This document shows positions 5,769-21,265 of a DNA stretch of 64,000 bases, in pieces (position 1 is the first letter of the stretch; every line of letters begins with the position of its first letter). This stretch comes from Candidatus Omnitrophota bacterium (GTDB taxonomy: Bacteria > Omnitrophota > Gorgyraeia > 2-01-FULL-45-10). The notes beneath the pieces were generated by a model. The model searched no databases. It saw only the letters and a program-made list of their open reading frames with translations, and was not told the origin of the DNA. The DNA lies in contig JAQVUX010000003.1 in NCBI GenBank assembly GCA_028699255.1, positions 82,654-146,653 of the forward strand. The letters run 5' to 3'. The position numbers and the translations under genes were made by a program.

Positions 5769-7001
5769 ATGAAGTTCTGTTCCAGGTGTATGTATCCTTC
5801 TATGGCGGCCACTCCGCTGACCTTTGACGACAAAGGGGTATGTTCCGGATGCAGGGTAGCGGGTCAGAAAAAAGTTATCGATTGGAAGGGGCGATTCCAG
5901 ATGTTGAAAAAACTGACGGATGAATACCGAGCCAAAAATAATTACGATATTCTTATCCCCGTAAGCGGCGGAAAAGACAGTTATTACCAGGCGCATATAG
6001 CCAGCAAAGAGCTTGGGCTGAAGGTTCTTTTGGTTACATATCACGGTAATAATTATCTTCCGGAAGGCGAATACAATCTCGCGCGGATGCGGGAACTCTT
6101 CGATTGCGATCACATAGTTGTCAAACCCGGCGTCGATGTATTGATAAAAATGAACCGCATCGGTTTCAAACTGCAGGGGGATATGAACTGGCATAATCAT
6201 TGCGGAATATTTACGGTTCCTATCCAGGAGGCGGTCAGGCATAAAGTACCTCTTATGATGTGGGGGGAACATGGGTTCATGGATATGGGTGGTATGTACT
6301 CTTACAGCGATTTTGTGGAATTTACCGCGAAGACCCGTCTTGAACACGGGTTGCGAGGATATGATTGGCACGATTTTACGGATGAAGGACTGGAGAAGCT
6401 CGGCCGCAGTGAACTCAAGGAAGGTCTAAGACCTAAAGATCTTCTGTGGGCGCAATATCCGCCTGATGAAGAGATAGCTTCCGTGGGAGTGCGCGGCATA
6501 TATTTAAGTAACTATCTCGATTGGGACGGCACGAAGAACGCCGAATTGGTAACGAAGCTATACGGGTGGAGGGCGGCACAACAACCCTTTGAGCGCACTT
6601 ACCGCAGTTTTTCAAATCTCGATGATATGCACGAGAACGGTATCCATGATTATCTGAAGTTCGTGAAATTCGGATATGGCAGGGCCAGCGATCACGCTTC
6701 CAAGGATATACGCGCAGGCGTCATGACGCGCGAAAAAGGAATAGAGATGGTGCGTAAGTACGACCATGTAAAGCCGCGGCGTGACCTGGAGCGGTGGCTT
6801 AAATATGTAAATATGACCGAAGAGGAATTTGACGCCATATGCGATACTTTCCGTGATCCGCGGGCCTGGCGCATAGAAGGCGGCCAATGGGTAAAGGACG
6901 ATATCTGGGGCGGTTCTTCCGCTTACGGGCCGGTTCATCTAAAGTGCCCCCAGAGAGCTAAATTTATGCGAGAGGAAAATTATGGCCGAACAAAAAAGTA
7001 A
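5769..7001 (+). CDS. N-acetyl sugar amidotransferase (WbuX/PseA/LfnA-like, PP-loop ATP-pyrophosphatase)
   Basis: Start ATG 5769 with GAGGT RBS. PP-loop SGGKDS. N-terminal CxxC...CSGC. Sits next to hisH/hisF paralogues. Confidence 0.7.
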   Translation: MKFCSRCMYPSMAATPLTFDDKGVCSGCRVAGQKKVIDWKGRFQMLKKLTDEYRAKNNYDILIPVSGGKDSYYQAHIASKELGLKVLLVTYHGNNYLPEGEYNLARMRELFDCDHIVVKPGVDVLIKMNRIGFKLQGDMNWHNHCGIFTVPIQEAVRHKVPLMMWGEHGFMDMGGMYSYSDFVEFTAKTRLEHGLRGYDWHDFTDEGLEKLGRSELKEGLRPKDLLWAQYPPDEEIASVGVRGIYLSNYLDWDGTKNAELVTKLYGWRAAQQPFERTYRSFSNLDDMHENGIHDYLKFVKFGYGRASDHASKDIRAGVMTREKGIEMVRKYDHVKPRRDLERWLKYVNMTEEEFDAICDTFRDPRAWRIEGGQWVKDDIWGGSSAYGPVHLKCPQRAKFMREENYGRTKK

Positions 7002-7998
7002 TATCATAAGCGAAGAAGATATAAGGCCGGAGTATTTGAAGGCGGACCAGGCAGGATTACTTGCCTCGGACATAAAGATGCTACTGTCGTACAAGAAAAA
7101 GTTTGTGAAGGTCGCGTGCCCTGCCTGCGAAAACGGTTCTTCGCGGAAGATGTTTACGAAGTATGGGCTTCAATATGTTAAGTGCGAAAAATGCGGGACG
7201 GTATATGTGAACCCCAGGCCTACGCCGGAGATACTGGAGAAGTATTACTCGGCTTCCAAGAATTATGAATATTGGAATAATTATATCTTCCCGGCTTCGG
7301 AATCAGCCAGGAGGGAAAAAATATTCAAACCCAGAGTGAAAAAGCTGGTGGAGTTCTGTAAGCGTTACGGCCTACGGCCAAAGACGCTCCTGGAAGTCGG
7401 CGCGGGTTTCGGTACCTTCTGCGAAGAGGCCGCGCGGGTGAAATTTTTCCGCAGGATCATAGCAGTAGAGCCGACGCCCGGCTTGGCCGATACTTGCAGG
7501 AAGAAAGGCATAGAAGTAATAGAGAAGCCGGTGGAGAAGATTAAGCTTAAAGGCCTTTCCGTCGATGTCGTTGCTTCCTTCGAAGTTATCGAACATCTTT
7601 TTTATCCGTCAGGTTTTTTGCGCAGTTGCGCGTCACTGCTTTCGACAGGCGGCCTTATCATTTTAACGTGCCCTAACGTCAAAGGATTCGACGTAGATGT
7701 GCTGGGTAAACTTTCGGCAACATTCGATAATGAGCATCTAAACTACTTTCACCCGGAGTCTCTCTCAAGGCTTCTTGAAAGATCCGGTTTCGATGTTGTG
7801 GATATAGCGACACCCGGCAGGCTCGATGCTGAGCTTGTTAGGAAGGCGGCGCTTGGCGGGAAGATAGATCTATCGGGAAGACCTTTCCTTAAGCGCGTAC
7901 TCCTCGATCGATGGGATGAGGCGGGCCGTTCATTCCAGGATTTCCTGGCGGATAATCTGCTATCTTCGCATATGTGGATAGTAGGACGAAAAAAATGA
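6982..7998 (+). CDS. Class I SAM-dependent methyltransferase with N-terminal Cys4 zinc ribbon (paralogue 2 of 3)
   Basis: 338 aa. CPACENG...CEKCG, LEVGAGFGTF motif I, EVIEHLFYP, LSTGGLIILTCPN. Confidence 0.7.
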   Translation: MAEQKSNIISEEDIRPEYLKADQAGLLASDIKMLLSYKKKFVKVACPACENGSSRKMFTKYGLQYVKCEKCGTVYVNPRPTPEILEKYYSASKNYEYWNNYIFPASESARREKIFKPRVKKLVEFCKRYGLRPKTLLEVGAGFGTFCEEAARVKFFRRIIAVEPTPGLADTCRKKGIEVIEKPVEKIKLKGLSVDVVASFEVIEHLFYPSGFLRSCASLLSTGGLIILTCPNVKGFDVDVLGKLSATFDNEHLNYFHPESLSRLLERSGFDVVDIATPGRLDAELVRKAALGGKIDLSGRPFLKRVLLDRWDEAGRSFQDFLADNLLSSHMWIVGRKK

Positions 7999-8022
7999 CG
8001 CATTTAACCTTCGAGGCATAGC

Positions 8023-9066
8023 ATGAAAGAATTGGTTAAAAGGAAAGATTCGATAGACCACTTAAAACATTTCGGGAAAAAAGATTCAAATCTCTTTATA
8101 CACGATTCCTATATTGAAAGCGGGCATCCCGAAAGGGCGAAAAAGTTTCTCGAATACAGAAAACTTTGGGAAAGCGTGAGCGAGGGCAGTAAGACGCCGG
8201 ACTTCCCGTATTTTGTGACATTCAGTTTCAGCGATTCATGTAATTTGTCATGCGCGCACTGCTACAGAACATTTAATAAGGATAAGACGGAGAGACATTT
8301 ACTGGAATACGACGAAGCCGTACGGCTTATAGATGAATGCAAAAAGATAGGTGTATATTCTATAGGGATAGGCAGTGAAAGCGAAGTATTTGTATATAAG
8401 CGGATAGCGGATGTGATGAAGCGGATATCTGAAAATAAGTTTGAAGACACGTGGGTATATACGAACGGTACGCTTTTGAACGATGAACGCATTGATCTCA
8501 TATTGGATAGTGATGTAACGCGCCTCAGTATATCGGTCGACGCTGTAACCGGCGAGACTTACAGGAAAACCAGGGGCGGAGACTTTAATAAATTGATGTC
8601 GAACATATTCAATTTTCTCGACAAAAGAGAAAAACGTAGAACGAAACTACCGGTTCTCAGGGTGACCGCCGTAAAATATAACCTAACCGAACCCGAGATA
8701 GGCTTATTCGTAGACTTTTGGAGCAAAATAGCGGATGAAGTCGATGTACAGCCGCTTATCGATATAAAAAACATAGACGAATTGCGATATGACAAGATCG
8801 AAAAAATAAACTGCATATATCCCAAGAGGATGCTGTATATCACCTGGAACGGGGATTACAAGCCGTGCTGTTCCGAATTCTGTAAGCACCTGACGATAGG
8901 GAATATCAGGGATATGAGTATACTGGATGCATGGAATTCGGAATATATGCGCGACCTGAGGTTGCAATTGTGCGGGGAAAAACCCCTTAATAAGGCCTGC
9001 CTTAATTGCCTCAGATCCCTGCATAGTACTGAAAAGTATGAACCGTTAACTTTGAAGGAAAAATAG
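8023..9066 (+). CDS. Radical SAM protein with SPASM-like C-terminal Cys cluster
   Basis: 347 aa. CNLSCAHC (CxxxCxxC). C-terminal CCSEFC...CLNC Cys-rich region. Confidence 0.75.
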   Translation: MKELVKRKDSIDHLKHFGKKDSNLFIHDSYIESGHPERAKKFLEYRKLWESVSEGSKTPDFPYFVTFSFSDSCNLSCAHCYRTFNKDKTERHLLEYDEAVRLIDECKKIGVYSIGIGSESEVFVYKRIADVMKRISENKFEDTWVYTNGTLLNDERIDLILDSDVTRLSISVDAVTGETYRKTRGGDFNKLMSNIFNFLDKREKRRTKLPVLRVTAVKYNLTEPEIGLFVDFWSKIADEVDVQPLIDIKNIDELRYDKIEKINCIYPKRMLYITWNGDYKPCCSEFCKHLTIGNIRDMSILDAWNSEYMRDLRLQLCGEKPLNKACLNCLRSLHSTEKYEPLTLKEK

Positions 9067-9069
9067 ATA

Positions 9070-10878
9070 ATGCGCAGGGCCTTGATACTCAATGATACCA
9101 AAGACGCTTTTTACGCGGCGGAAAATATAGATCTTTTATTACGGGACGATACCGTTATTTTTTCCACTCACGTATCCGTGGATGTGTTTCTGAAAGAAAA
9201 GTTCCGGATAGAGTGTATATCCCTGTGTAAGTATATCGCGCCGGAGCAGGCGGCGCGGAATATAAAACTGTCGGATGAAATGGCGAACGAAACGGTGGAT
9301 CTTCTGGACGCGGCTCATTCCGCAGGAATAAATGGAAGATCCGGTTTAAGGGACGTCAGACTTTTCCGGCCGCTATTTTCATATATCATCTATTTCCAGT
9401 TTTTGACTTGTTTTAATCTGCACGACTCGCTTAAAGCGGCTATAGAGAAGAGCGGTATAAGCGAGATACTTTTTTTTAACAAAAAGATAAATGAATACGA
9501 AGAATCCGCTATTACTATAGAGGATGTGTTGAAGACGCTTTCCGGCGTTAAATTAACGGCTATCATGGCCGGCGCGCGGACACAGGCGGTAATCGGCAAT
9601 CCGGATATTTTAAAGTGGCGGAAGGTCATAGACTATCCGTACGTAGTATTTTTGAAGTTGCTCTCGCGCCTCGAAAAGCTTTTACTTAAACTCAGATACT
9701 CTGTGATGTTAAAGGGGAGAAAAACCATAGTATTGATCGAACCGTTATGCGACCTGTCTTTCCTGCGTCGCATGCTGGCGTTGTCACGGTATAATGTCAT
9801 ATACTATGATATCAATTCTCCTTTGCCCGCAGGTTCCGCCGCGGGGCTTGTGCATGATTATAAGATATCTATCGTTCCAAGGGGCTTTGCGGGAACCGAT
9901 TCGGACAAGAGCCGGCGTTATTTCAGAGATATTATAATGAAAAACGCGGAAGAGATGTTCAATAAAGGAGCCGGTAGATACATAGGATGCCTTAAGGAGT
10001 TAGACCGATTGAATAGCATATACGGTATAAAGCTGGGAATATGGGGCATCTCGCCGGTTTTTGGCCCGAGGGGTTTAGTGGCCGAATATCTCCTGAAAAA
10101 TAACAAGCCCGTCATAGGTATGCAACACGGCGGCCTTCTGGGCAATCTTCATAATAGTGACGTCCATATGTCGGACGCGACCAGGTGCACCGATTACATA
10201 TCTTACGGGTTCAATAAAAATGATCTGGCAAAAACTTATCCCGAAAAAAAATTCGACATGGTAACTATTCATGAATTCGGCACGACAAAAACGTTTAAGG
10301 AAAAAAGGCGAGGCAGGCCGGTCATTGATTTACTCATTCCACCGACGATAACGCTGTCTATGCTGGAGGGCGGCATGATCAGGGATATGCCGGACACCAT
10401 TTTAAATAATCAGCTCAAGCTGGTAGAATACCTGGACGGGGTAAAAGGGCGCAATATAGTGGTAAAGCCCATGCCTTTTTCCAATTACGATAATCTGGCG
10501 ATATTGCCGGCTCTTGAAAGAATGAAGAATATCAAATTAATAAATAATCTTTCGTTCGAGGATGCGCTTAATTTTTATGATGTTAAGGCTGTATTGCTGG
10601 AACATGCCACGACGGCACTTTACGAAGCCATCGCCTGCGACGTGGAGATATTTTTAGTGAACCATAATGTTGTAAGGCCCATCGAAGCGGGCGCTTTGGA
10701 CGCGCTTAAGAAGCGGGTGCATTGCGCAGAGAATGCCGAAGATATCATCCCGAAATTGGATCTTTTTTTCAGCGGGAAATTGGAGAAGAAGCGCGACAAT
10801 AGTTTCTACGAGCGCTATGTCTACAAAAAAGATGCGAAAAAAAATATAACGGAGCTGGTAAAAAAGCTGGTGAGCTAA
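9070..10878 (+). CDS. Hypothetical protein (602 aa, possible polysaccharide-modifying / GT-B-like)
   Basis: Long ORF with codon usage matching its neighbours. No motif I can name. Confidence 0.45.
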   Translation: MRRALILNDTKDAFYAAENIDLLLRDDTVIFSTHVSVDVFLKEKFRIECISLCKYIAPEQAARNIKLSDEMANETVDLLDAAHSAGINGRSGLRDVRLFRPLFSYIIYFQFLTCFNLHDSLKAAIEKSGISEILFFNKKINEYEESAITIEDVLKTLSGVKLTAIMAGARTQAVIGNPDILKWRKVIDYPYVVFLKLLSRLEKLLLKLRYSVMLKGRKTIVLIEPLCDLSFLRRMLALSRYNVIYYDINSPLPAGSAAGLVHDYKISIVPRGFAGTDSDKSRRYFRDIIMKNAEEMFNKGAGRYIGCLKELDRLNSIYGIKLGIWGISPVFGPRGLVAEYLLKNNKPVIGMQHGGLLGNLHNSDVHMSDATRCTDYISYGFNKNDLAKTYPEKKFDMVTIHEFGTTKTFKEKRRGRPVIDLLIPPTITLSMLEGGMIRDMPDTILNNQLKLVEYLDGVKGRNIVVKPMPFSNYDNLAILPALERMKNIKLINNLSFEDALNFYDVKAVLLEHATTALYEAIACDVEIFLVNHNVVRPIEAGALDALKKRVHCAENAEDIIPKLDLFFSGKLEKKRDNSFYERYVYKKDAKKNITELVKKLVS

Positions 10879-10884
10879 TAGCGT

Positions 10885-12471
10885 ATGGATACCCAGGACA
10901 TAATACCGGAAAATATCGCCTGCGAGAAACGCTTCCGGGGCGATTCCCTTAAGAAGCGCTGGCTCTATAAATTCTTTGCCAACTTTATAGGGTTCGGCAT
11001 GGGATTTATTACCCAGTCCATCGTGCCTCGGAGCCTGGGCCCGGGCGCATACGGCGATTTCAGCTTCCTGACCAATTTTTTTACGCAGGTAGCGAATTTC
11101 TTCGACATGGGTACGTCGGCGTGTTTTTATACCAAGCTTTCACAGCGCCCCGAGGAGAGGGATTTAGTTTCATTCTATATATATTTTGCCGCTTTTCTCG
11201 TGGTAGGTGTTATGACGTTTGTCGTAGTATCGGTATTGACCGGCGCTTACGCCGGATTTTGGCCGGGGCAGGAGATATTTTACATATATCTGGCCGCGGG
11301 GTTCGGTATATTGAGCTGGGTAGTGCAGGCTATGGCAAGCATGACCGACGCATATGGTATCACGGTCATGGCCGAGAAGGCGAAGATGCTTCAAAAGGTA
11401 TTGACCGTCGCGATAGTTGTCCTGTTATATATTTTCAACCAGATTACCCTGGCCAATTTTTTCTATCTTCAATATGCGGTTTTCTGCTTCCTCATCCTGG
11501 CATTTATATATATAATGAGGCGGGAAGGCTATTTGCTTGGGCAGGGAATAACCATCGCTTTTGATAGAGCAAAGAAATATATAAAAGAATTCTATACTTA
11601 CAGCCATCCTTTATTCTTTTGTTATCTTATAGGGATGGTAGTGAATATATTCGATAGATGGCTCTTGCAGGCTTTCGGCGGAAGTATACAACAGGGCTTT
11701 TTCGGGTTCTCTTTTCAGATAAGCGCGCTGTGTTTTATTTTCGCCGGGGCGCTGACGCCTCTTTTGGTCAGGGAATTCTCGATCTCGCACGCCAAACAGG
11801 ATCTTAAAGAGATGAGCCGTGTCTTTCAGAAATATATGCCCGTGTTATTGTTCTCTACCACTTTCTTGACGTGCTTTATCGCCGCGCAATCGGGGAACAT
11901 AGTCGCGATTATGGGCGGAGATAAATACAGGGATTCGGTCTGGCCGTTATTCATCATGGCATTTTATCCCATTTACCAGGTTTTTGGCCAGGCATGCGGC
12001 TCAGTTTTTTTGGCGATGGGCGAGACCAAATCTTACAGTAATATAAGTATATTATTTATGCTGTTAGGTATCCCGGCGACTTATTTTTTAATAGCCCCCC
12101 GCGCGCTTTATGGGTTGGATGCCGGCGCGACCGGACTGGCTCTAAAGATGATATTGCTTCAAGGTCTGGGGGTCAATGCGCTTTTATACGGTACGGCCAA
12201 GGCTCTCAAGTTCTCATTCAGAAAATATGTATTCGCGCAGGGCACAACCATGGCGGCGCTTTTGACGCTTGCCTTCGCGGCATCATTCGCCGCTGTGCGA
12301 TTTACGGGATTTTTCTGCAATAATTTTGTGAACTTTTTCTCGGCGGGACTGGCTTATACCGCTATGGCCGCCGCGGTGTTGTATTTTTTCCCCGGCATCT
12401 TTGCGCTGAGAAAAAGCGATATCGACAGCGCCATTGAGGCAGGCATGAAGAAATTGGGGAGGGACAGGTAG
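10885..12471 (+). CDS. Wzx-like oligosaccharide flippase (MOP/polysaccharide biosynthesis protein family)
   Basis: 528 aa, about 12-14 predicted hydrophobic helices, typical Wzx-like N-terminus. Confidence 0.6.
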   Translation: MDTQDIIPENIACEKRFRGDSLKKRWLYKFFANFIGFGMGFITQSIVPRSLGPGAYGDFSFLTNFFTQVANFFDMGTSACFYTKLSQRPEERDLVSFYIYFAAFLVVGVMTFVVVSVLTGAYAGFWPGQEIFYIYLAAGFGILSWVVQAMASMTDAYGITVMAEKAKMLQKVLTVAIVVLLYIFNQITLANFFYLQYAVFCFLILAFIYIMRREGYLLGQGITIAFDRAKKYIKEFYTYSHPLFFCYLIGMVVNIFDRWLLQAFGGSIQQGFFGFSFQISALCFIFAGALTPLLVREFSISHAKQDLKEMSRVFQKYMPVLLFSTTFLTCFIAAQSGNIVAIMGGDKYRDSVWPLFIMAFYPIYQVFGQACGSVFLAMGETKSYSNISILFMLLGIPATYFLIAPRALYGLDAGATGLALKMILLQGLGVNALLYGTAKALKFSFRKYVFAQGTTMAALLTLAFAASFAAVRFTGFFCNNFVNFFSAGLAYTAMAAAVLYFFPGIFALRKSDIDSAIEAGMKKLGRDR

Positions 12472-14829
12472 ATGCCGGATATCCTAAAGCGCGAATGGCT
12501 CCCGGTATTATTTATAGCCGCAATAGTACTATTCGGATATAGCGGACTCTTCGCCGGGGCGGACTTTTTTGTGGATGATGACGCGGTGCTTCTTCATGGC
12601 TATTCTCATGGGAACGCCATAGGGAACGGATGGCGGCCGGACAAGGGCTTCGGGATATCATTCTTTTTCGGGGATCCTGGTATGGCGCATGCCTGGTCGG
12701 TATTCTCGATATGGGAAAAAATAATAAAGTTGCCCGCGCTGGCATATAATTCATCCGTTATTCTTCTTCTTATCCTTGCCGCGATATCGCAATATGTTTT
12801 ATTGAAGAGAGTCGCGCCGGGTATGCGCTGGATATCAGCGTTCCTTGCGCCTTTGATAGTATTCGGCCCGCTTCAGCATGAGTTCTTCTTCCAGAGGCAC
12901 TGGATAACGCTTTCTATAGGTACGCCGCTTTTACTTATGCTCATTTATGATTATTTCAAAGACCCGAAGACGGTATATCTTTTACGCGCCGGATTCCTAT
13001 TGTGGTTCGTGTGGTTCTTCGGGAGCTTCGCGCCGTTTTTGGAACTTTTAATAGTCAGCGGTATCTTTGCGGTGACATTCTGGATATACTTTAAAAAGGA
13101 AAGGGCCGGGTTGGTAATAAGAGCCGTGCTACTCTACTTAACGGCGATAACGATGACCGTGTTACTCGGCTTCTGGATATTTTATTCTGTTTTTATAGAA
13201 AAGAACCTTTCCGGATATTTGAGAGAGCCGGTTTATAATGCCGCGGGGGTATTCAGCCCGGCTTCCGCGATGTATTTTCTGATAAATCTATTTCACTGCG
13301 GATGGCTACCCGGCAATATAATACTACCCGGCATGGATTGGTTGCCAAAAGTGAGTTGGGATATGTGTTCCGTGGTATTTCCACTCGTATTGATTGTTTT
13401 TCTTTTTAAGCGCTCATCGGGATTCTGGGAATTTTCCATGAAGTGGCTTATCGTAGTTCTGTTTGCGCACGAATTTTTTATGGGCGCCGTGCCTGCATAT
13501 GCCAATCTTTCGCAATTCATTATAAATGGTTATCCGCTATGTAAGTTTCAGCCGGCGTACCATTGTTTTCAAATAGGACTTCTGGGCATATTTATTTCCG
13601 GGATATCGGCGGGCAATTTCAATATGAAGAGTCTTTTGGGCAAAAGCCTGCGTTCGGCTGTAGCCGCCATCCTGTGTCTTTTTTATGCGGCGCTATTCGT
13701 CTTTGCCGTAATTTCGGTAGTATCGCCGGGTATCCTGCTTGACGGCTTAGCCGGACTGATCCGGGTCTTGCCTTTTGGTAATTTATCCCGCGCCGCCGAC
13801 GGGTTAGTTTCTTATGTGGCGCTGTTTAATCTTAAAAGTGTTCAGCAGGGGATGGGTCTTTGCAGTATTCTGTTCTATCTTTCGAGCGCGCTTCTGATCT
13901 GGATTTTTGCATCGAAGAAATATATGAATAAAATCTCCGCCACTTACAAAAATGGACTGGCTTTACTGCTTCTGGCAAATGCATTGTTATTGTCATGGGC
14001 CATATATCCTTTGCATAAAGGGCCGATGGTTTGGGCCCAGAACGAGATTGCCGAATTTGTGAAATCCTTGAAACCGACCGACCGTTTTTACAGCGCCCTG
14101 GACAAGACGAGCCAAAAGACCAAAAAGACCCTGGAGAGTTTTAAAAAGAATTGGGTGGAAGAGGACGGCGCCCCAAGACGGTATATGCCAGGTTACTGGG
14201 ACGCACCGAAGTTGAGCATATCGTCCGGCAAGTCGTTTTCGCAAAAGCCGGTTGCGGATTTCACCATTCGTATTTTTAATGGCGATGGTCAAACGCGCCT
14301 CGGAAGTTTGCGGGAGCTCGACGCCGGCCCGTTCATAACATCGAAGATGATGAATGACTCGGCGATATCTTATTATTATTCGTTCCGCGAACTGCCGCCG
14401 GCGGATGGTTTGTCATTGGCCGCGAAGGCGCGGCAATTATACATATATAAGAATACCGCCGCGCGCCCCTACTTTTACCTGGAAAATAGAGCGGGCGTGT
14501 CCGATGGCTCCGGTGTTTCGTTGAAAGAATTTTCCTTCGGGAGGATGGTTTTCGATTATTACGGCGAAACCGCGAACATGCTCATAGTCGCGGATGCCTG
14601 GCATCCTTTCTGGAAGGCCAGATCCGGAGAAGCTTTTTATCCGGTGTTCAAGTGTAATGATATATTCAAAGAGGTACTGCTCCCGAAGGGAAAGCATGAA
14701 GTGACGCTATTTTTCGACACCGGCGCATTTATGCCCGGCATATATGTGTCGATCGTTTCCTGGGTATTATTTTTAACGGTCTATTGTGTTTTGTCCGGGC
14801 GCAAAAAAAGAAAAGAGGGTTGGTTATGA
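12472..14829 (+). CDS. Large polytopic membrane protein, YfhO-like / GT-C-like putative glycosyltransferase
   Basis: 785 aa, many TM helices followed by a large soluble C-terminal domain. Immediately upstream of a GtrB-like GT2. Confidence 0.45.
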   Translation: MPDILKREWLPVLFIAAIVLFGYSGLFAGADFFVDDDAVLLHGYSHGNAIGNGWRPDKGFGISFFFGDPGMAHAWSVFSIWEKIIKLPALAYNSSVILLLILAAISQYVLLKRVAPGMRWISAFLAPLIVFGPLQHEFFFQRHWITLSIGTPLLLMLIYDYFKDPKTVYLLRAGFLLWFVWFFGSFAPFLELLIVSGIFAVTFWIYFKKERAGLVIRAVLLYLTAITMTVLLGFWIFYSVFIEKNLSGYLREPVYNAAGVFSPASAMYFLINLFHCGWLPGNIILPGMDWLPKVSWDMCSVVFPLVLIVFLFKRSSGFWEFSMKWLIVVLFAHEFFMGAVPAYANLSQFIINGYPLCKFQPAYHCFQIGLLGIFISGISAGNFNMKSLLGKSLRSAVAAILCLFYAALFVFAVISVVSPGILLDGLAGLIRVLPFGNLSRAADGLVSYVALFNLKSVQQGMGLCSILFYLSSALLIWIFASKKYMNKISATYKNGLALLLLANALLLSWAIYPLHKGPMVWAQNEIAEFVKSLKPTDRFYSALDKTSQKTKKTLESFKKNWVEEDGAPRRYMPGYWDAPKLSISSGKSFSQKPVADFTIRIFNGDGQTRLGSLRELDAGPFITSKMMNDSAISYYYSFRELPPADGLSLAAKARQLYIYKNTAARPYFYLENRAGVSDGSGVSLKEFSFGRMVFDYYGETANMLIVADAWHPFWKARSGEAFYPVFKCNDIFKEVLLPKGKHEVTLFFDTGAFMPGIYVSIVSWVLFLTVYCVLSGRKKRKEGWL

Positions 14830-15788
14830 AATACACCGTATTGGTTCCGGTATATAATGAGTCCAATAGCCTGACAGAATTATGCGACAGGATCGAGACT
14901 GCTTTCAGATCGATCAAAGAGGAGAAAGAGTTCGATATCCTTATAGTCGATGACGGGTCTACAGACTCTTCGCGTGACGTTATCAAATCTCTTTGCGCCG
15001 GCAGGAAATATGTTAAAGCTATCTTTTTACGGAAGAATGTCGGCAAGTCGTTCGCGTTGACCGCGGGGTTTATGAATTCGCATTCGGACTATGTTATTAC
15101 CATAGACGGAGATTTACAGGATAGGCCGGAAGATATACCCGTCCTGATCAATAAGATAAGTGAAGGGTATGATCTCGTCTCCGGCTGGAAGCAAAACAGG
15201 AAAGACGGCATCGTGAGGGTTCTTGGCTCCAGGGTTTTTAATGATGTTGTATCACGTCTCGGCGGGATAAGGTTCCATGATTTTAATTGCGGGTTCAAAA
15301 TATACAGGTCAAATGTTGTAAAGAATATATCGGTTTACGGCCAGCATCACCGTTTTATACCGCTTTTGGCTTATTTTATGGGATTCAAAGTTGCCGAGGT
15401 TCCGATATCGCATGATAAGAGAAGATTTGGCTCTTCCAAATATCCTGCTTTTCGTTACCATGGACTGTTCGATATCCTATCGATCCTGTTCACATACAAA
15501 TACAGGTTCAGTCCTTTGTATTTTTTTGGCGCGATAGGTATAATGTTGATTGCCCCCGGAGCATTGCTTGCCGCATATCTATTGTGCAGGCATCTTATGT
15601 TCGTATTTGGTTTCGGAACCCAGTATATGCTGTTCAACAGGCCGCTTCTTATGGCTTCGTTTACGGTTTGTATACTGGGGCTGAACGTATTCCTCACAGG
15701 GTTTGTATGTGATTTTATTCTCCAGCACTCCGGTTCAAAAGGAGTTACCGGATATGTGGAGAGTCTTATAGATGAGAAAGAATGTTAA
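14826..15788 (+). CDS. GT2 polyprenol-phosphate sugar synthase (GtrB/CsbB/ArnC-like)
   Basis: Start ATG 14826 (ATGA overlap). LVPVYNE...DDGSTD...IDGDLQD motifs and two C-terminal TM helices. Confidence 0.75.
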   Translation: MKYTVLVPVYNESNSLTELCDRIETAFRSIKEEKEFDILIVDDGSTDSSRDVIKSLCAGRKYVKAIFLRKNVGKSFALTAGFMNSHSDYVITIDGDLQDRPEDIPVLINKISEGYDLVSGWKQNRKDGIVRVLGSRVFNDVVSRLGGIRFHDFNCGFKIYRSNVVKNISVYGQHHRFIPLLAYFMGFKVAEVPISHDKRRFGSSKYPAFRYHGLFDILSILFTYKYRFSPLYFFGAIGIMLIAPGALLAAYLLCRHLMFVFGFGTQYMLFNRPLLMASFTVCILGLNVFLTGFVCDFILQHSGSKGVTGYVESLIDEKEC

Positions 15789-15809
15789 GAGGATAAGGAC
15801 GCGATACAG

Positions 15810-16844
15810 ATGCAAAAAATAAAGTACGGCTTAAAGCTTCTCGGGAACATCTTGGCGATAAAGCTGGGTATGCCGCGGCCAATCATAGCGGTTTGGGAGA
15901 CGACCTACCGGTGCAATATGCGATGCGCATTTTGCAATGAAAAGAATATGGCCGCCAAAGAGATGGATACGCCGGAGGCCATCCGGATGATAGAAGAGCT
16001 TGCGGAGATTGGGACGAACATCATACTACTCACCGGCGGCGAGCCGACGCTTCGCAACGACATAGATGCCATAATGGACGCCGTAAAGAAGAGCGGTATG
16101 ACGTCTATATTTACAACGAACGGATTGAACGCGAAGAATAGGATATCCGCTATCCTGAAGGCAGACATGATACGCCTGAGCGTTGACGGATACGGGGATG
16201 TCCATGACGCCATCCGTGGCACACCGGGCGCTTTTGAAAGCGTGCGGGAGTTAGTGCCGATTCTCGTGAAAGCGGGCAAGCCGCCGATGATCGTGTGCGT
16301 TGCTACGCGCGCGGCGGATAGGGAGAATTTGAAGAAGCTCTTTGCGCAGGCCAGGGAGTGGGGCGTGCAGGTGGATCTGTCGATGGTTACTTATTCCATG
16401 AGGACGAAGATAACATCAGAAGACGCAAAAGAGGTTAGTAGTATCCAGCAAGATAGTCGACTGGGTGAGGCAGACTTTCTCGATACGCTCGACGAATTTA
16501 AAGAAATGTTTCCGGACGTCCTGGCTAACCCTGGTTTTTACCGCCGTCTGATCACGGATGGCGGGCTCGGCACAAGATGCAGGGCGTTGGATGTCTCGCT
16601 GAATATACGGCCCGACGGCACGGTTTCTATCCCGTGCGACGCTTTTACTCTTTTTAAGCTCGAAGGAGATAAGCACGACGTTTGGCGACGTATGCGGGGC
16701 CTGAAAGACGTGCGGGAGAAGTTGGGTAAGTATGAATTTTGTAACGCCTGCTATAAGAGATGTATAGCTTTTCCATCGATGCTGTTGAGTATTAAAAATC
16801 TATTAGACCTGGTAAAAGCATATTTGCCGACGGTTCGGAGGTAA
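15810..16844 (+). CDS. Radical SAM protein
   Basis: 344 aa. CNMRCAFC (CxxxCxxC); GGEPTL. Confidence 0.7.
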   Translation: MQKIKYGLKLLGNILAIKLGMPRPIIAVWETTYRCNMRCAFCNEKNMAAKEMDTPEAIRMIEELAEIGTNIILLTGGEPTLRNDIDAIMDAVKKSGMTSIFTTNGLNAKNRISAILKADMIRLSVDGYGDVHDAIRGTPGAFESVRELVPILVKAGKPPMIVCVATRAADRENLKKLFAQAREWGVQVDLSMVTYSMRTKITSEDAKEVSSIQQDSRLGEADFLDTLDEFKEMFPDVLANPGFYRRLITDGGLGTRCRALDVSLNIRPDGTVSIPCDAFTLFKLEGDKHDVWRRMRGLKDVREKLGKYEFCNACYKRCIAFPSMLLSIKNLLDLVKAYLPTVRR

Positions 16845-16854
16845 GGGGGAGGTC

Positions 16855-18519
16855 ATGAACGATTTTGAATATCAGCTGAACTATATAAAAGAGAACAGTC
16901 GCAGGCTGATCTCCATGCAGGATCGTAATATCGTCTCACCCGCTTACGGCTGTTTCCATTATGCTTACTGGCGGGATAAGGTGACCGACTTTGCGGATGC
17001 CCGTTATCAGGAGGCGGGCGCCGCGCTTGGTCTTCTGACACATCCGGCTATATATGACAGCTCCATGCCGTCGAAGAAGGATCTCTACGCTTCTTTTTCC
17101 GCCGCTGTCGTTTTCTGGGCAAAGATTCAGCATGGCGATGGCAGTTTCGACGAATGGTACAAGAATGAGCGCGGTTTTGCCGCGACGGAATTCAGCCTCA
17201 TCGCTTTCGGCTTAGCGCTGTATCTTCTCGGAGACTCGGTTGAGGATGCGGATAGATCCAGGATATCGGCTGTCATAGTGAAGGCGGCGGATTGGCTGGT
17301 GAAGCGTAACGATGATGTTAAATCTAATCATGAAGCCGCGGCCGCGGCCGCCCTGGCACTCGCATACCGCATTACGGGAAACGAATATTATGGCCGGGCC
17401 GCGCGCGAGAAATGCGCAAAGGTGCTTGGGTCGCAGACGGATGAGGGGTGGTTTAATGAGGTAGCGGGTATGGATCTGGGATATTGCAGTGTCCTGCTCG
17501 ACTATATGATGCTCTACCATGTGCTGATGAGTGACGACTCTGTTATACAGCCCATGAGAAAACTATATTCATTTTTATATAATTTCATTCACCCGGATCT
17601 TACCGTTTCCGCGGAAGCCGGCATATGCTTCAACAATTATCTTGCCAGGTTGGGAACGGTGCTTCTCTCCGAACATTCGCCTGAGGCCGCCGCGATAGCG
17701 CGCTTCTTCGACGGAAGAAGCGCCGGGTTTGAAGGAATAGCCCCATATCTTTCCGATGACCTGCGCCTGTGCAGGTGGGGATATTTGCCCATCGTCACGA
17801 AGATACTGAAAAAAAGGATGGTCGAGGAATCACTTTTTGCGAAAGCGTATAGTAATAAAAAAGACGACAAGACCCCGGGAGGATTTTTTAAAAAGGCGGC
17901 CGTATTTTCTCGTTCTTCTCCGGGCATATATGTGGAATTTATCCCTGCAGGCGGCGGCGCGATAAAAGGTTATTTTAACGGCGAGCTCTCCGGCGTTACC
18001 GGCAGATACGAGGACTCAGGTTATGTTTACGGCCCGATCGGTTCATCGGGAAAATATATTTTTACAGGTGGCTACAAGGCCGATCGCAAATCGGAACTTG
18101 CCGAAGATGGGATGAGCGCGGAAGTGGAATTTGTTCCGGCGAGATTTTTCTTTCCGCCGTACATAGCGCGGCTGGCGCTAAGGATAGCATGCAGTATCCC
18201 GATGTTTTCGTTTTACGCAAGGAAACTTATCGATATGTATCGTAAGATGAAAGGGACGGCGATAAACCAATCCGCGGCGCCGGTGGCGGATGGGAAGGGG
18301 GCTATTCTGCTCAGGCGGTGCCTGCAGACAGAAGAATGGGGTTTTAGGATCACCGACGAGATTATAGCCGGCGATGGGTTTGGCGGAATCGATCGCGCGT
18401 TACTCAGGCCGATATCATACAGTAACGGAGTAAAAGTTGATAATGTGGAATCCTCGTCGGGGACGGCAGGTAATTTTAGCAGAAAGATTTGTTTTATTAA
18501 AGAGGTTCGGCTGGCTTGA
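16855..18519 (+). CDS. Hypothetical protein (554 aa, alpha-helical repeat / alpha-alpha-toroid-like)
   Basis: Long ORF, no recognisable catalytic motif. Could be a polysaccharide lyase/epimerase-like fold. Confidence 0.45.
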   Translation: MNDFEYQLNYIKENSRRLISMQDRNIVSPAYGCFHYAYWRDKVTDFADARYQEAGAALGLLTHPAIYDSSMPSKKDLYASFSAAVVFWAKIQHGDGSFDEWYKNERGFAATEFSLIAFGLALYLLGDSVEDADRSRISAVIVKAADWLVKRNDDVKSNHEAAAAAALALAYRITGNEYYGRAAREKCAKVLGSQTDEGWFNEVAGMDLGYCSVLLDYMMLYHVLMSDDSVIQPMRKLYSFLYNFIHPDLTVSAEAGICFNNYLARLGTVLLSEHSPEAAAIARFFDGRSAGFEGIAPYLSDDLRLCRWGYLPIVTKILKKRMVEESLFAKAYSNKKDDKTPGGFFKKAAVFSRSSPGIYVEFIPAGGGAIKGYFNGELSGVTGRYEDSGYVYGPIGSSGKYIFTGGYKADRKSELAEDGMSAEVEFVPARFFFPPYIARLALRIACSIPMFSFYARKLIDMYRKMKGTAINQSAAPVADGKGAILLRRCLQTEEWGFRITDEIIAGDGFGGIDRALLRPISYSNGVKVDNVESSSGTAGNFSRKICFIKEVRLA

Positions 18520-18552
18520 GTCCGGCCGCATTCAATAGGAGGTGTAATTAGC

Positions 18553-19290
18553 ATGGTAGCGGCGCTCTTACTTGGACGGGAAGGCAGTGTAGGATTCCCC
18601 GGAAAGAACATGTATCCTGTGCTGGGCAAGCCATTGTCGTATTATCCCATGGCCGCGGCCAGAAAGGCCGCAACCGTAGACGAAGTATTTTTATCCACCG
18701 ATTCTAAAGACTTAATGAAGCTGGCCGACAGCCTCGGTATCAAGATCATAAAAAGGCCCGCCGAGTTGTGCACCAACGAGGCCACGGGGCTTGACGCTTT
18801 TCTCCACGGGTACAAAGTGATACGGGATCTTTACGGCTCGGATAGAATAGAGTTCATGATACTCATGTTTTGCAATGCCCCGACGGTGACGCCACAGACG
18901 ATAGACGAAGGCGTGAAAGTCCTTCGCGCAAACCCGCTTTACGACTCGGCCGTTACCGTGTCGCGATATAACATGTGGAGCCCGCTTCGCGCCCGCCGGA
19001 TCGGGGAAGACGGACTGCTACATCCGTTCGTACCTTTCGAGGCGCTCGGCGATCCGTCTACATTCAACTGCAACAGGGATTCGCAGGGAGACGCCTGGTT
19101 CGCGGATGTGGCCGTATCGGTGGTGCGGCCGGGATGCCTCGATAATATTGAAGACGGATTACTTCCGCAGAAGTGGATGGGCCGCAAGATATATCCGTTG
19201 AAACAGTGGGGCGGGCTTGACGTCGATTATGAATGGCAGATACCGCAGGCGGAATACTGGCTGAAGAAAAACGGATACGGAGAAAAGTAA
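18553..19290 (+). CDS. Acylneuraminate cytidylyltransferase-family protein (CMP/CDP-sugar or -alditol synthetase, NeuA/PseF-like)
   Basis: 245 aa. LLGREGSVGFPGKNM... P-loop-like N-terminus typical of the CTP_transf_3 family. Confidence 0.65.
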   Translation: MVAALLLGREGSVGFPGKNMYPVLGKPLSYYPMAAARKAATVDEVFLSTDSKDLMKLADSLGIKIIKRPAELCTNEATGLDAFLHGYKVIRDLYGSDRIEFMILMFCNAPTVTPQTIDEGVKVLRANPLYDSAVTVSRYNMWSPLRARRIGEDGLLHPFVPFEALGDPSTFNCNRDSQGDAWFADVAVSVVRPGCLDNIEDGLLPQKWMGRKIYPLKQWGGLDVDYEWQIPQAEYWLKKNGYGEK

Positions 19291-19292
19291 TT

Positions 19293-20276
19293 ATGGTGCA
19301 GATAAAACCCGACGGTAATTTTAACCCGCTGGGAGGAGTATCGGTTCATAGTGGAAAAACCGACGAGTATAGGGAATACAGGCGATGCTGGTCCGAATAC
19401 CCGTCTAATTTCATTCTGCGGGATTTTCCGATGCATCTGGATATCGAAATAACCAATCGCTGTAATCTCAAGTGTACATTTTGTGACAGGAGGCCGCATG
19501 TCGGCAAGGGCTCTTTCGGCGATATGGATATGGCGCTTTTTAAAAAAATAATCGATGAAGGAGCCGGCCATAAATTGTGGGCCTTGAAACTCAGTTACCG
19601 TGGAGAGCCGTTATTGCACAAGAATGTAGCGGAAATGGTCGGCTACGCGAAGAAGAAAGGCGTCCTGGACGTCTATTTTAATACGAACGGTATGCTCCTT
19701 ACCGAAGAGATAGCTAAAAAACTTATCGATGCCGGGCTTGACCGCATATCAATATCGATGGAAGGTACCGATCCGCTGGCTTATGAGAAGATGCGCGTTA
19801 ACGCGGAATTTGCCGTCGTCCTGAAAAATATCGATACGTTGGCAGGATTGAGAAAAAAGATGAAAGTGGAGCATCCTAAAATACGGATTCAGTCGGTCGA
19901 ATATCCCGGATTTGACCGGGATGAGTACGGACGTTTCTGGCTTTCTCACGGCGACGAAGTTGCTATGCTCGACTATACCGATATGTCCAAAAGGGTTGTC
20001 GGACTTACGGCTGATTGGGCCTGTCCTCAGTTATGGCAGCGCATGACCATAGAATGGAACGGGAATGTGCTACCGTGCAATAACGATGACCCGGGACGCT
20101 TATCTCCGGGTAACGTAAAGGATAGAGCTATATATGATTGCTGGCATGATCCGAAAGTCGACGAAGTGAGGCGACTGCATAGATCCGGTCGATCGCATGA
20201 GGCCGGGGATTGCAACGGTTGTCCATGGAGAACGGCTCAGATAAAGAAGACGCCGCGACGGGATGGTGTATCGTGA
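19293..20276 (+). CDS. Radical SAM protein with SPASM domain
   Basis: Start ATG 19293. CNLKCTFC (CxxxCxxC). C-terminal CNNDD...CWHD...CNGCPW SPASM-like cluster. Confidence 0.75.
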   Translation: MVQIKPDGNFNPLGGVSVHSGKTDEYREYRRCWSEYPSNFILRDFPMHLDIEITNRCNLKCTFCDRRPHVGKGSFGDMDMALFKKIIDEGAGHKLWALKLSYRGEPLLHKNVAEMVGYAKKKGVLDVYFNTNGMLLTEEIAKKLIDAGLDRISISMEGTDPLAYEKMRVNAEFAVVLKNIDTLAGLRKKMKVEHPKIRIQSVEYPGFDRDEYGRFWLSHGDEVAMLDYTDMSKRVVGLTADWACPQLWQRMTIEWNGNVLPCNNDDPGRLSPGNVKDRAIYDCWHDPKVDEVRRLHRSGRSHEAGDCNGCPWRTAQIKKTPRRDGVS

Positions 20277-20290
20277 AAAGTTATGGCTTG

Positions 20291-21265
20291 ATGAGGCCAC
20301 AGGATATATACGAGAAAGTTATTGCGCAGAGAGCGCTCGACGGCGAAGCCTTCTTTGAAAAATACAAAGACAGGTTTATCGACGTAAATTGCCCGGCTTG
20401 CGGCGCCTCCGGAGCATATGTTTTCAGTAAATACGGTTTTCGCCACTTACGATGCGAAAAATGCCTGACCTTATTCTGTTCGCCGCGTCCGTCGGATGAA
20501 CTGATAGCATATTATTACAATAATTATAAAGCGCCGCAGATGTGGACGGAGCTTTTGCTCAAGGCCGACGCCGCCCGGAAGGCTTTGCAATATAAGCCGC
20601 GCGTCGAGCGAATGATACGCGCTATGCGGGAAGCGCCGGCCGCGCGCGGAGGTGTCGCGCTCGATATAGGCGCGGGAAGCGGAGCTTTCTCCTTATGCCT
20701 TAAAAATTCCGGATTTTTTAAGGACGTTATCGCGATGGATTTTTCGGACTCGTGTGTCAAAGCTTGCCTCGAGCAGGGATTGCAGGCGTTAAAAGGCAGT
20801 ATTGGAGATGCCGGTAGTGGTTTTGCCGACGCTATCTTTATAAACGATCTCATCGAGCATCTCTCCGATCCGGCAGTTTTTTTGAAAGAATGCTCAAGGG
20901 TATTAAAGAGAAAAGGTTTTATCTCTATAGCCACGCCGAACGGTGAAGGATTCGATTTTAAAATCATGGATGCCGAAACGAAGAACATAACACCTCCGGA
21001 ACATTTGAATTATTTCAATACGCGCTCTATCGGCGTTCTTTTGGAAAGAGCCGGTTTTTGTGTTCTCTTTGCGGAAACACCCGGCATTCTGGATGTCGAT
21101 ATAATTTCAAAAGCACGCTCCTCGGGTTTTAACATAAAGGATAAGAACAGCTACATCGATTATATACTGGATCAGGATGAGAACGTTCTGAGTAATTTCC
21201 AAAAGTTCATTTCCGATAACAAACTATCCAGTCATATGCTTGTGATGGCCCAAAAGGGAGAATAA
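20291..21265 (+). CDS. Class I SAM-dependent methyltransferase with N-terminal Cys4 zinc ribbon (paralogue 3 of 3)
   Basis: CPACGASG...CEKC, LDIGAGSGAF motif I, IEHLSDP. Start uncertain: ATG 20291 preferred, ATG 20225 is the alternative. Confidence 0.6.
   Translation: MRPQDIYEKVIAQRALDGEAFFEKYKDRFIDVNCPACGASGAYVFSKYGFRHLRCEKCLTLFCSPRPSDELIAYYYNNYKAPQMWTELLLKADAARKALQYKPRVERMIRAMREAPAARGGVALDIGAGSGAFSLCLKNSGFFKDVIAMDFSDSCVKACLEQGLQALKGSIGDAGSGFADAIFINDLIEHLSDPAVFLKECSRVLKRKGFISIATPNGEGFDFKIMDAETKNITPPEHLNYFNTRSIGVLLERAGFCVLFAETPGILDVDIISKARSSGFNIKDKNSYIDYILDQDENVLSNFQKFISDNKLSSHMLVMAQKGE

Follow-up and report, generated by a model that had tools for sequence, protein, structure and literature searches.

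Predicted Twitch-type radical-SAM enzymes in three separable modules of a surface-glycan locus from a Candidatus Omnitrophota bacterium

Three modules in a surface-glycan locus

Here, we describe a stretch of 64,000 nucleotides (the window) from assembly GCA_028699255.1 of a Candidatus Omnitrophota bacterium (contig JAQVUX010000003.1, positions 82,654 to 146,653), in which genes for three radical S-adenosylmethionine (radical-SAM) enzymes, RS1, RS2 and RS3, lie among genes for three paralogous methyltransferases with a four-cysteine ribbon, MT1, MT2 and MT3. An initial annotation had reported the radical-SAM genes at 8023, 15810 and 19293 and the methyltransferase genes at 2415, 6982 and 20291. 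Open reading frames (ORFs) and translations confirm all six, and both methyltransferase/radical-SAM adjacencies reported at that stage are real (MT2 and RS1 are 24 nt apart, RS3 and MT3 14 nt):

2430-3413, + strand: MT1 (Methyltransf_23, E 3e-29); the ORF opens at 2415 and 2430 is the probable start, following the gene call in locus L158
6982-7998, + strand: MT2 (Methyltransf_23), paired with RS1
8023-9066, + strand: RS1, Twitch-type radical-SAM protein (Pfam Radical_SAM 61.8 bits, SPASM 50.6 bits)
15810-16844, + strand: RS2, radical-SAM protein with a Twitch-like C-terminus (Radical_SAM 73.6 bits)
19293-20276, + strand: RS3, BtrN-like Twitch radical-SAM protein (Radical_SAM 79.8 bits, SPASM 41.1 bits); the ORF opens at 19233 and the family alignment supports 19293
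20291-21265, + strand: MT3 (Methyltransf_23), a module C accessory

The first 27.4 kb of the window are the front of a surface-glycan locus of the lipopolysaccharide (LPS) O-antigen type in a Candidatus Omnitrophica metagenome-assembled genome (MAG). The proposed surface-polysaccharide setting is supported by a flippase, glycosyltransferases, an O-antigen-ligase-like gene, a heptosyltransferase and a WecA-like gene. The genes of the window form one long + strand run to about 54.6 kb, followed by priA, and the locus takes up about 55 kb of the window on this single strand and a further 8 kb or so before it. The genes from 6982 to 21265 had been suggested to encode one sugar-modification pathway. 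The surface-glycan setting stands, but the single pathway does not: the region from 1 to 27.4 kb falls into three modules that can be separated, and each of them has a Twitch-type radical-SAM enzyme of its own. The neighbourhoods of RS1, RS2 and RS3 recur separately in other genomes, and none of 42 RS3 loci has a homologue of RS2 or of the large proteins U1, U2 and U3 described below. These loci were obtained by scanning 185,579 species genomes other than the source genome (best match 70% identical) and clustering their ORFs. The modules are thus independent, and we reject the idea that one pathway spans 6982-21265. Glycan genes make up the neighbourhood in every related locus examined.

Module A, to which RS1 belongs, is a nonulosonic-acid pathway of undefined type. 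In addition to RS1, MT1 and MT2, it contains the following genes (the unassigned U3 is listed with them for its position):

1-999, + strand: PseG-like nucleotide-sugar hydrolase (NCBIfam PseG, 117 bits against a cut-off of 153.6)
977-1744, + strand: GNAT N-acetyltransferase in the PseH position (Pfam Acetyltransf_1, E 1e-11), conserved in locus L002
1746-2411, + strand: PIG-L family de-N-acetylase (Pfam PIG-L, E 4e-29)
3410-4330, + strand: sugar N-formyltransferase (Formyl_trans_N, Formyl_trans_C; ArnA-like, 212-215 bits)
4341-4964 and 4972-5760, + strand: HisH-like and HisF-like ammonia-delivering pair (Pfam GATase, His_biosynth)
5769-7001, + strand: WbuX-type N-acetyl-sugar amidotransferase for acetamidino formation (TIGR03573, 322.8 bits against a cut-off of 203.2)
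9070-10878, + strand: U1, LIC12162-family putative nonulosonic-acid transferase (faint TIGR04331 match, 15 bits against a cut-off of 225)
10885-12471, + strand: Wzx-type flippase (Pfam Polysacc_synt), kept after U1 in L001 and L091
12472-14829, + strand: U3, 785-residue membrane protein with about 11 hydrophobic segments in a hydropathy scan
L158:1252-3937, about 7.8-5.1 kb upstream of the window: fourth Twitch radical-SAM enzyme between a KdsB/NeuA-like cytidylyltransferase and a PseC-like DegT protein

Among the module A proteins, WbuX alone exceeds its NCBIfam cut-off; the corresponding cassette of L002 includes a 49% identical homologue of the PseG-like hydrolase. Upstream of the window, the cassette reads, in order, regulator-like ORF, cytidylyltransferase, fourth Twitch enzyme, PseC-like DegT protein, protein similar to nucleoside diphosphate (NDP)-sugar dehydrogenases, AsnB, methyltransferase and, directly upstream, NeuB. 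The fourth Twitch enzyme, about 7 kb from the window, is BtrN-sized (286 residues) and 28% identical to RS3, with cysteines C19/23/26 and C203/221/264/267. The cassette, its upstream part included, contains no PseB/LegB-type dehydratase, and the set of six pseudaminic-pathway equivalogs (PseB, C, H, G, I, F) is not complete at the cut-offs, with scores of 343 against 423.5 for PseC, 216 against 340 for PseI and 66 against 206 for PseF; the NeuB model scores 285 against 400.

RS1 is rare: 5.8 billion proteins include about 18 that are closely homologous to it, and a scan of JGI metagenomes gave only two true orthologues, while a wider clade at 30-40% identity comprises 163 clusters at E <= 1e-30 in an exhaustive search; at E <= 1e-10, 3,978 clusters are related to RS1. 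In other loci, WbuX and a methyltransferase usually come before RS1: a methyltransferase stands beside it in four of five loci, and in L001 and L090 orthologues of MT2 (58-73% identity) directly precede it. A LIC12162-type protein follows RS1 wherever downstream sequence exists, i.e. in L001, L091 and, as a fusion, L002. Homologues of U1 carry PF27859 (a weak match), and a LIC12162 transferase beside neuABC in Herbaspirillum has been proposed to transfer sialic acid (PMC6679464). U1 and the module B protein U2, the two large proteins previously listed as unassigned, are present at 9070-10878 and 16855-18519, and neither has a useful sequence match in the PDB; U3 has no match in Pfam or NCBIfam. 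Two RS1-like proteins are fusions. One (P0280, L159:2786-4450) joins a class-I methyltransferase to an RS1-like radical-SAM/Twitch enzyme and adjoins an aldo-keto reductase and a B12 radical-SAM gene; the other (P0397) joins a weak MptE/Maf-like domain to an RS1-like enzyme. Both are singletons, each from one contig, and count as weak support.

The radical-SAM enzyme of module B is likewise rare, with 14 close homologues; it is 100% identical to a protein recorded at NCBI for a Candidatus Omnitrophica MAG. The module comprises RS2 and two further genes:

14826-15788, + strand: GT2 glycosyltransferase (Glycos_transf_2, E 5e-27)
16855-18519, + strand: U2, ulvan-lyase-N-like protein (PF25840, Ulvan_lyase_N, on an identical product)

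In locus L088, the RS2 homologue is accompanied by homologues that are 49% identical to U2 and 42% identical to the glycosyltransferase at 14826. Outside the window (L086-L088), an AsnB-like amidotransferase always precedes the RS2 homologue, and GT-C_AftD and DUF2079 membrane proteins lie nearby. The only AsnB associated with the window sits upstream, in module A, and not beside RS2. L088 also holds a pair of PqqD and radical-SAM genes.

Module C comprises RS3, the accessory MT3 and the following genes:

18553-19290, + strand: NeuA/PseF-like cytidylyltransferase (CTP_transf_3; best PDB matches CMP-Neu5Ac synthetases, E 8e-15)
21271-22344, + strand: HisC-like class I/II aminotransferase (Aminotran_1_2; hisC model 245.7 bits against a cut-off of 276.6)
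22344-25433, + strand: PGDH-like 2-hydroxyacid dehydrogenase, extended short-chain dehydrogenase/reductase (SDR), cyclase-family hydrolase and HAD phosphatase, the module C core (Pfam, NCBIfam)
25430-27391, + strand: U4, protein of the surface carbohydrate biosynthesis type and putative transferase (TIGR04326, LIC13510, full-length match of 219.8 bits against a cut-off of 250)

The RS3 family is large, with more than 1,100 homologues that are about 60% identical across phyla. It occurs in Planctomycetota, Omnitrophota, Desulfobacterota, Elusimicrobiota, candidate phyla radiation (CPR) phyla, Lachnospiraceae, Ruminococcus and Methanomicrobiales, including Salidesulfovibrio brasiliensis JCM 12178 and Lachnospiraceae isolates that appear to be cultured, their records carrying no MAG label; the RS3 homologues of Lachnospiraceae isolates (MGBC000131 and MGBC000137 contigs, L023 and L024) are 53-54% identical. 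The initial statement that radical-SAM/SPASM enzymes are uncommon in polysaccharide clusters is correct for well-studied glycan loci only, whereas RS3-type modules, often together with B12 radical-SAM genes, are frequent in uncultivated anaerobes. Across the 42 loci, the genes near RS3 are distributed as follows:

cytidylyltransferase: 40/42 loci (median identity 62%)
extended SDR: 31-32/42 loci
FabG-type SDR: 26/42 loci
PGDH-like dehydrogenase: 23-27/42 loci
HAD phosphatase: 22-26/42 loci
TIGR04326-type protein of 580-660 residues (U4 family): 24/42 loci
B12 radical-SAM protein: 18/42 loci
cyclase-family hydrolase: 17-19/42 loci
ribbon methyltransferase: 16/42 loci
HisC-like aminotransferase: 11-15/42 loci

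RS3 and a NeuA-like cytidylyltransferase form a fixed pair within a cassette that is conserved from phylum to phylum, and the ribbon methyltransferases belong to the accessory genes of these modules and not to their core. Among the genes up to three positions from RS3, an aminotransferase alone occurs in nine loci, a FabG-type enzyme alone in 18, both in none and neither in nine (hypergeometric estimate for this exclusivity about 5e-4, uncorrected for phylogeny). From sequence, U4 is a likely transferase for the module C product. Each of the 18 loci with B12-binding radical-SAM genes has one to three of them, likely C-methylases, and other methyltransferases in RS3 loci are of the TylF, CmcI and FkbM types; together, these enzymes suggest that the products of RS3 loci are heavily methylated. 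Module C of the window has no B12-type radical-SAM gene.

Predicted enzyme classes

RS1, RS2 and RS3 belong to the radical-SAM superfamily: all three match PF04055 with 62-80 bits against a cut-off of 29.5, their AlphaFold2 (AF2) models match radical-SAM folds, and the cysteines of the CxxxCxxC motif, namely C73xxxC77xxC80 in RS1, C35xxxC39xxC42 in RS2 and C57xxxC61xxC64 in RS3 (RS3 numbered from the Met at 19293), are invariant in their families. A full SPASM domain has a seven-cysteine motif, CX9-15GX4C...CX2CX5CX3C...C, and two auxiliary clusters. Initially, the genes at 8023 and 19293 were credited with SPASM-like C-terminal cysteine clusters. RS1 and RS3 do match PF13186, but only four C-terminal cysteines are invariant in each (C264, C282, C326 and C329 in RS1; C244, C262, C307 and C310 in RS3), two further cysteines of RS1, C287 and C317, are not conserved in the family alignment, and the CX2CX5CX3C segment is missing. 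Because only four C-terminal cysteines are invariant, we place RS1 and RS3 with the one-cluster Twitch type and not with SPASM. The Twitch domain represents a shortened SPASM domain with one auxiliary cluster held by three or four cysteine ligands, and its type enzyme BtrN, which carries out the two-electron oxidation of an aminocyclitol alcohol to the ketone, has one four-cysteine auxiliary cluster (PMC9012708). RS2 has no Pfam SPASM match; its invariant C-terminal set is C257, C276, C311, C314 and C318. On the basis of these patterns, all three proteins are predicted to be Twitch-domain radical-SAM enzymes.

Comparison with solved structures points in the same direction. In phmmer searches against all PDB sequences, BtrN is the top match of RS1, through the Twitch domain only (E 3e-7), and of RS3, through both domains (E 2e-15), and RS3 Cys244/262/307/310 align with the BtrN auxiliary-cluster cysteines Cys169/188/232/235, next to a GNVLPC motif common to both. 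BlsE follows with E 7e-8 and DesII is marginal (E 0.01). The closest solved relatives, BtrN, BlsE and DesII, act on carbohydrates. The AF2 models have predicted local distance difference test (pLDDT) scores of 88.6 for RS1 and 86.5 for RS3. In Foldseek, the top match of RS1 is SuiB, with BtrN at TMt 0.74 and EpeE epimerase structures also among the matches, and the top matches of RS3 are BlsE and BtrN. The modelled folds thereby place RS1 and RS3 in the SPASM/Twitch subgroup, near its sugar-acting members. RS1 and RS3 are distant paralogues (24% identity, E 1e-28) with a common N-terminal extension of 45-60 residues (window 8023-8200 and 19293-19430) that has a conserved EYRxxW...(D)FP motif, consists of only one or two helices in the AF2 models and has no counterpart in BtrN or in the fourth Twitch enzyme before the window; it could be a nucleotide-sugar binding element. 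For RS2, the best PDB match is SkfB (E 2e-13) and the best NCBIfam match PTO1314 (103.6 bits against a cut-off of 306).

Several other assignments were considered and rejected. Orthology to BtrN, the 2-deoxy-scyllo-inosamine dehydrogenase of butirosin synthesis, does not hold, with about 20% identity and no aminocyclitol (2-deoxystreptamine) context; judging from the alignments, RS1 and RS3 probably work most like BtrN without being its orthologues. Likewise, a B12-dependent radical-SAM methyltransferase is excluded by the absence of PF02310 from RS1, RS2 and RS3, this domain being seen only in neighbours of their homologues elsewhere. The profile search that the initial annotation had named as able to refute a role in glycan synthesis places the radical-SAM proteins in no ordinary cofactor-maturation family: none of the three passes any NCBIfam model, and for the cofactor maturases (TIGR04317 for the tungsten cofactor, MoaA, NirJ/AhbD, PqqE and mycofactocin), the best scores are 79-117 bits against cut-offs of 231-650. 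A maturase of peptides that are synthesised by ribosomes and modified after translation (RiPPs) is rejected on three grounds, i.e. no RiPP recognition element (RRE) or PqqD domain, gaps of 2-24 nt around RS1, RS2 and RS3 that leave no room for a precursor peptide, and glycan context throughout. It is thus barely credible that the three proteins are ordinary cofactor or peptide maturases that happen to sit in a glycan locus, even though the top NCBIfam names are those of tungsten-cofactor, heme d1, MoaA and sactipeptide maturases, the RiPP maturase SuiB is the top Foldseek match of RS1 and L088 has its PqqD and radical-SAM pair, as the maturase models score 3-10 times under their curated cut-offs.

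The three methyltransferases share a Methyltransf_23 core (E 1e-15 to 3e-29) preceded by a cysteine ribbon (C49xxC52...C71xxC74 in MT1, C46xxC49...C68xxC71 in MT2 and C34xxC37...C55xxC58 in MT3), and they are paralogues (MT2-MT3 33% identity, E 2e-56; MT1-MT2 31%, E 7e-21). When a profile of 21 ribbon methyltransferases was searched against the PDB, the only matches that ran through the ribbon were TcaB9, KijD1 and mycarose 3-C-methyltransferase. Profile positions 36-266 align with TcaB9 13-251 (E 4e-21), the ribbon included, and all four ribbon cysteines are present in 21 of the 21 sequences and aligned with the CxxC...CxxC of TcaB9. Family positions Y89 (20/21), H205 (20/21), E251 (in all three window proteins) and H252 (21/21) align with TcaB9 chain residues Y78, H183, E226 and H227, which we take to be the active-site residues Y76, H181, E224 and H225 of the published numbering.

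A possible radical route to keto sugars

Based on these data, we suggest a model in which a radical-made keto nucleotide sugar is aminated, reduced or methylated and then transferred, with variations on this scheme in three modules. We judge this proposal as a whole to be evenly poised between right and wrong, with substrates, products and order of steps predicted from sequence. In the model, each Twitch enzyme would abstract a hydrogen from a sugar carbon of an acidic sugar linked to cytidine monophosphate (CMP) or uridine diphosphate (UDP) and would deliver a keto intermediate without O2 or nicotinamide adenine dinucleotide (NAD), as BtrN does on an aminocyclitol. The first step could be a BtrN-like dehydrogenation or an AprD4/DesII-like diol dehydration. 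In module C, the HisC-like enzyme would transaminate the ketone and MT3 would methylate the product, and in other genomes a FabG-type reductase would replace the aminotransferase with net epimerisation or deoxygenation as the outcome. The ribbon methyltransferases would act beside the new ketone (C-methylation), on the new amine or on the amidine, and the products would be transferred by the proteins of the LIC12162 and TIGR04326 families. The presence of a ketone-consuming aminotransferase or FabG-type enzyme beside the BtrN-like RS3 fits a radical-made keto sugar that is aminated, as in the window, or reduced. Moreover, the order of genes upstream, with the Twitch enzyme between the cytidylyltransferase and the DegT protein, repeats the logic of BtrN and BtrS.

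A number of observations weigh against this model. Neither RS1 nor RS2 has an adjacent aminotransferase or reductase in the window. Aminotransferases of the HisC class (I/II) usually act on 2-oxo acids or oxo-phosphates and not on keto sugars, and the HisC-like enzyme could serve the PGDH-like/HAD part of the cassette instead; in addition, the exclusivity of aminotransferase and FabG-type enzyme is uncorrected for shared ancestry. The identity of RS1 and RS3 to BtrN is only about 20%, and BlsE, BtrN (TMt 0.73-0.74), MoaA, SkfB, SuiB, DesII and EpeE are matched by Foldseek at similar E-values, so that the fold does not fix the chemistry. As for C-methylation, generic methyltransferases score equally on the core of the ribbon methyltransferases, and the conserved histidine positions are in part also found in generic Methyltransf_23 proteins such as 3cc8. 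Furthermore, PF08421 and PF08484 (Methyltransf_14) have no match in MT1-MT3 in the Pfam scan, and these proteins lack the C-terminal domain of about 165 residues that binds the sugar in TcaB9: they have about 330 residues against 416 in TcaB9 and end about 60-70 residues after the SAM domain. On these grounds, membership in the TylC3 family is rejected. With the TylC3-type enzymes, named for comparison at the outset, the window proteins share the ribbon and active-site positions, which we keep as a lead, but not the family-defining domains.

In principle, the same enzymes could act by other radical chemistries. As sugar epimerases similar to NeoN or EpeE, they would return a hydrogen from the opposite face through a cysteine thiol, without forming a ketone. 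Each family has a fifth, mostly conserved cysteine that could serve in this way (RS1 C283 in 18/19, RS2 C318 in 17/17 and RS3 C283 in 17/20 sequences), nonulosonic acids vary mainly in stereochemistry, and the EpeE matches of RS1 have been mentioned. However, serine or tyrosine replaces the fifth cysteine of RS3 in three of 20 sequences, the best sequence match is BtrN and neither NeoN nor EpeE, and an epimerase needs no downstream partner, yet RS3 is followed by an aminotransferase or a ketoreductase in a mutually exclusive manner. We therefore regard epimerisation as distinctly unlikely. Alternatively, radical diol-dehydratases or deaminases such as AprD4 and DesII would remove a hydroxyl group to give a deoxy-keto sugar that a reductase or aminotransferase then finishes, resulting in net deoxygenation or an amino-deoxy sugar. 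DesII is among the top fold matches of both RS1 and RS3, the FabG or aldo-keto-reductase neighbours mirror the dehydratase-reductase pair AprD4/AprD3, and module A is without a PseB-type 4,6-dehydratase although Pse/Leg-type nonulosonic acids are deoxy sugars. As the sequence match of DesII to RS3 is far weaker than that of BtrN, we consider this alternative unlikely; it has the keto-intermediate logic of our model and differs from it in the first step only.

A separate question is whether the methyltransferases work together with the radical-SAM enzymes. Coupling is supported by the adjacency in four of five RS1 loci, by the fusion of a methyltransferase to a radical-SAM enzyme and by the weak Maf/MptE-like fusion, and the TcaB9-like ribbon and active-site positions also speak against a mere coincidence. 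On the other hand, because the ribbon methyltransferases are accessory in RS3 modules, a role independent of the radical enzymes, e.g. N-methylation of the acetamidino group made by WbuX, is likely for them. The reading by which all pairing is coincidental, with the ribbon proteins as independent O- or N-methyltransferases that make, for instance, N-methylacetimidoyl-legionaminic acid, draws on their variable positions in the 16 RS3 loci, on L091, where the methyltransferase beside RS1 is of another type, on L002, where it is four genes away, on the position of MT2 directly after WbuX and on the many methyltransferase kinds in RS3 modules (TylF-like, CmcI-like, FkbM and B12 radical-SAM); for the pairing as a whole, we see it as a serious but doubtful possibility.

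Wider setting and comparison with known systems

Further along the window, genes mark the locus as LPS-type:

35270-38605 and 48720-51843: WecA-like GT4, O-antigen-ligase-like (Wzy_C) and heptosyltransferase genes

These are followed by two more large membrane proteins, one of them PMT_2-like. A 613-residue protein at 31250-33091 is a GT1-family glycosyltransferase fused to a C-terminal DUF218 domain, and a NodU/CmcH-type carbamoyltransferase at 42878-44587, inside the glycan locus, suggests an O-carbamoylated sugar. From 1 to 57239, every called gene is on the + strand, the GC skew is uniformly positive, and neither a tRNA nor an obvious mobile element was seen in the part examined.

Nonulosonic acids (sialic, pseudaminic and legionaminic acids) shape host and phage recognition of bacterial surfaces and flagella. 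To our knowledge, their biosynthesis relies on NAD-dependent and pyridoxal phosphate-dependent enzymes only. In the full-text literature, we found nothing relevant on radical-SAM enzymes in nonulosonic, pseudaminic or legionaminic acid, O-antigen or capsule pathways, no paper in which "radical SAM" and "nonulosonic" occur together and no description of the RS1, RS2, RS3 and MT families. Thus, what appears to be new is the recruitment of Twitch radical-SAM sugar enzymes into CMP-sugar/nonulosonic-acid cassettes. At its broadest, one could envisage a radical route to sialic-acid-like sugars in anaerobic bacteria and archaea, in which Twitch enzymes replace the NAD-dependent dehydrogenases or dehydratases of the PseB/WbpB type and the keto-nonulosonic acids so made, or related CMP-activated acids, are aminated or are C-methylated by truncated, TcaB9-like ribbon methyltransferases; we offer this as a speculation that is improbable as it stands. 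If true, branched-chain or extra-amino nonulosonic acids, chemically unseen so far, would be expected, and the cytidylyltransferase-RS3 cassette would define a new family of CMP-activated sugars. A conserved radical-SAM step linked to a CMP-sugar synthetase, represented by more than 1,000 sequences in organisms that range from gut Lachnospiraceae to methanogens, would bring new chemistry, could help to explain nonulosonic-acid variants of unexplained biosynthesis and would give a first physiological role to a large uncharacterised Twitch clade and to a truncated TcaB9-like methyltransferase branch. The RS3 cassette is widespread and tightly conserved, and its presence in seemingly cultured organisms makes the hypothesis directly testable.

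Among characterised enzymes, BtrN (PDB 4M7S/4M7T) is closest in design to the radical-SAM proteins of the window: both combine a radical-SAM core with a one-cluster Twitch domain, the four auxiliary-cluster cysteines are aligned in RS3, the substrate is likely to be of the carbohydrate type, and the place of the aminotransferase after RS3 recalls that of BtrS after BtrN. However, RS1 and RS3 have the N-terminal extension and sit in a CMP-/UDP-sugar glycan setting instead of a pathway for aminocyclitol antibiotics, and the aminotransferase of RS3 is HisC-like, whereas BtrS is of the DegT type. BlsE, a cytosylglucuronate decarboxylase, and DesII, a deaminase/dehydrogenase of thymidine diphosphate (TDP)-sugars, are similar as enzymes of nucleoside- or nucleotide-linked sugars and as top or near-top Foldseek matches, but identity is only 12-18%, their pathways differ, and nothing at the RS loci points to decarboxylation or deamination. 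The ribbon methyltransferases resemble the 3-C-methyltransferases TcaB9, KijD1 and TylC3 in the N-terminal four-cysteine zinc ribbon followed by a class-I SAM domain and in the Tyr, His and Glu-His positions, and they are unlike TcaB9-type enzymes in their shorter length, without the C-terminal domain. At the level of the pathway, module A differs from pseudaminic-type pathways in passing the equivalog cut-off for WbuX only and in being without a PseB/LegB dehydratase, while NeuB, the PseC-like DegT protein, the PseG-like hydrolase, the GNAT enzyme, the cytidylyltransferases and WbuX with its HisH/HisF partners follow the plan of the pseudaminic, legionaminic and neuraminic acid pathways. Finally, the putative LIC12162-type and TIGR04326-type proteins of the window, which score under the cut-offs of these families, recall loci of Leptospira and Herbaspirillum.

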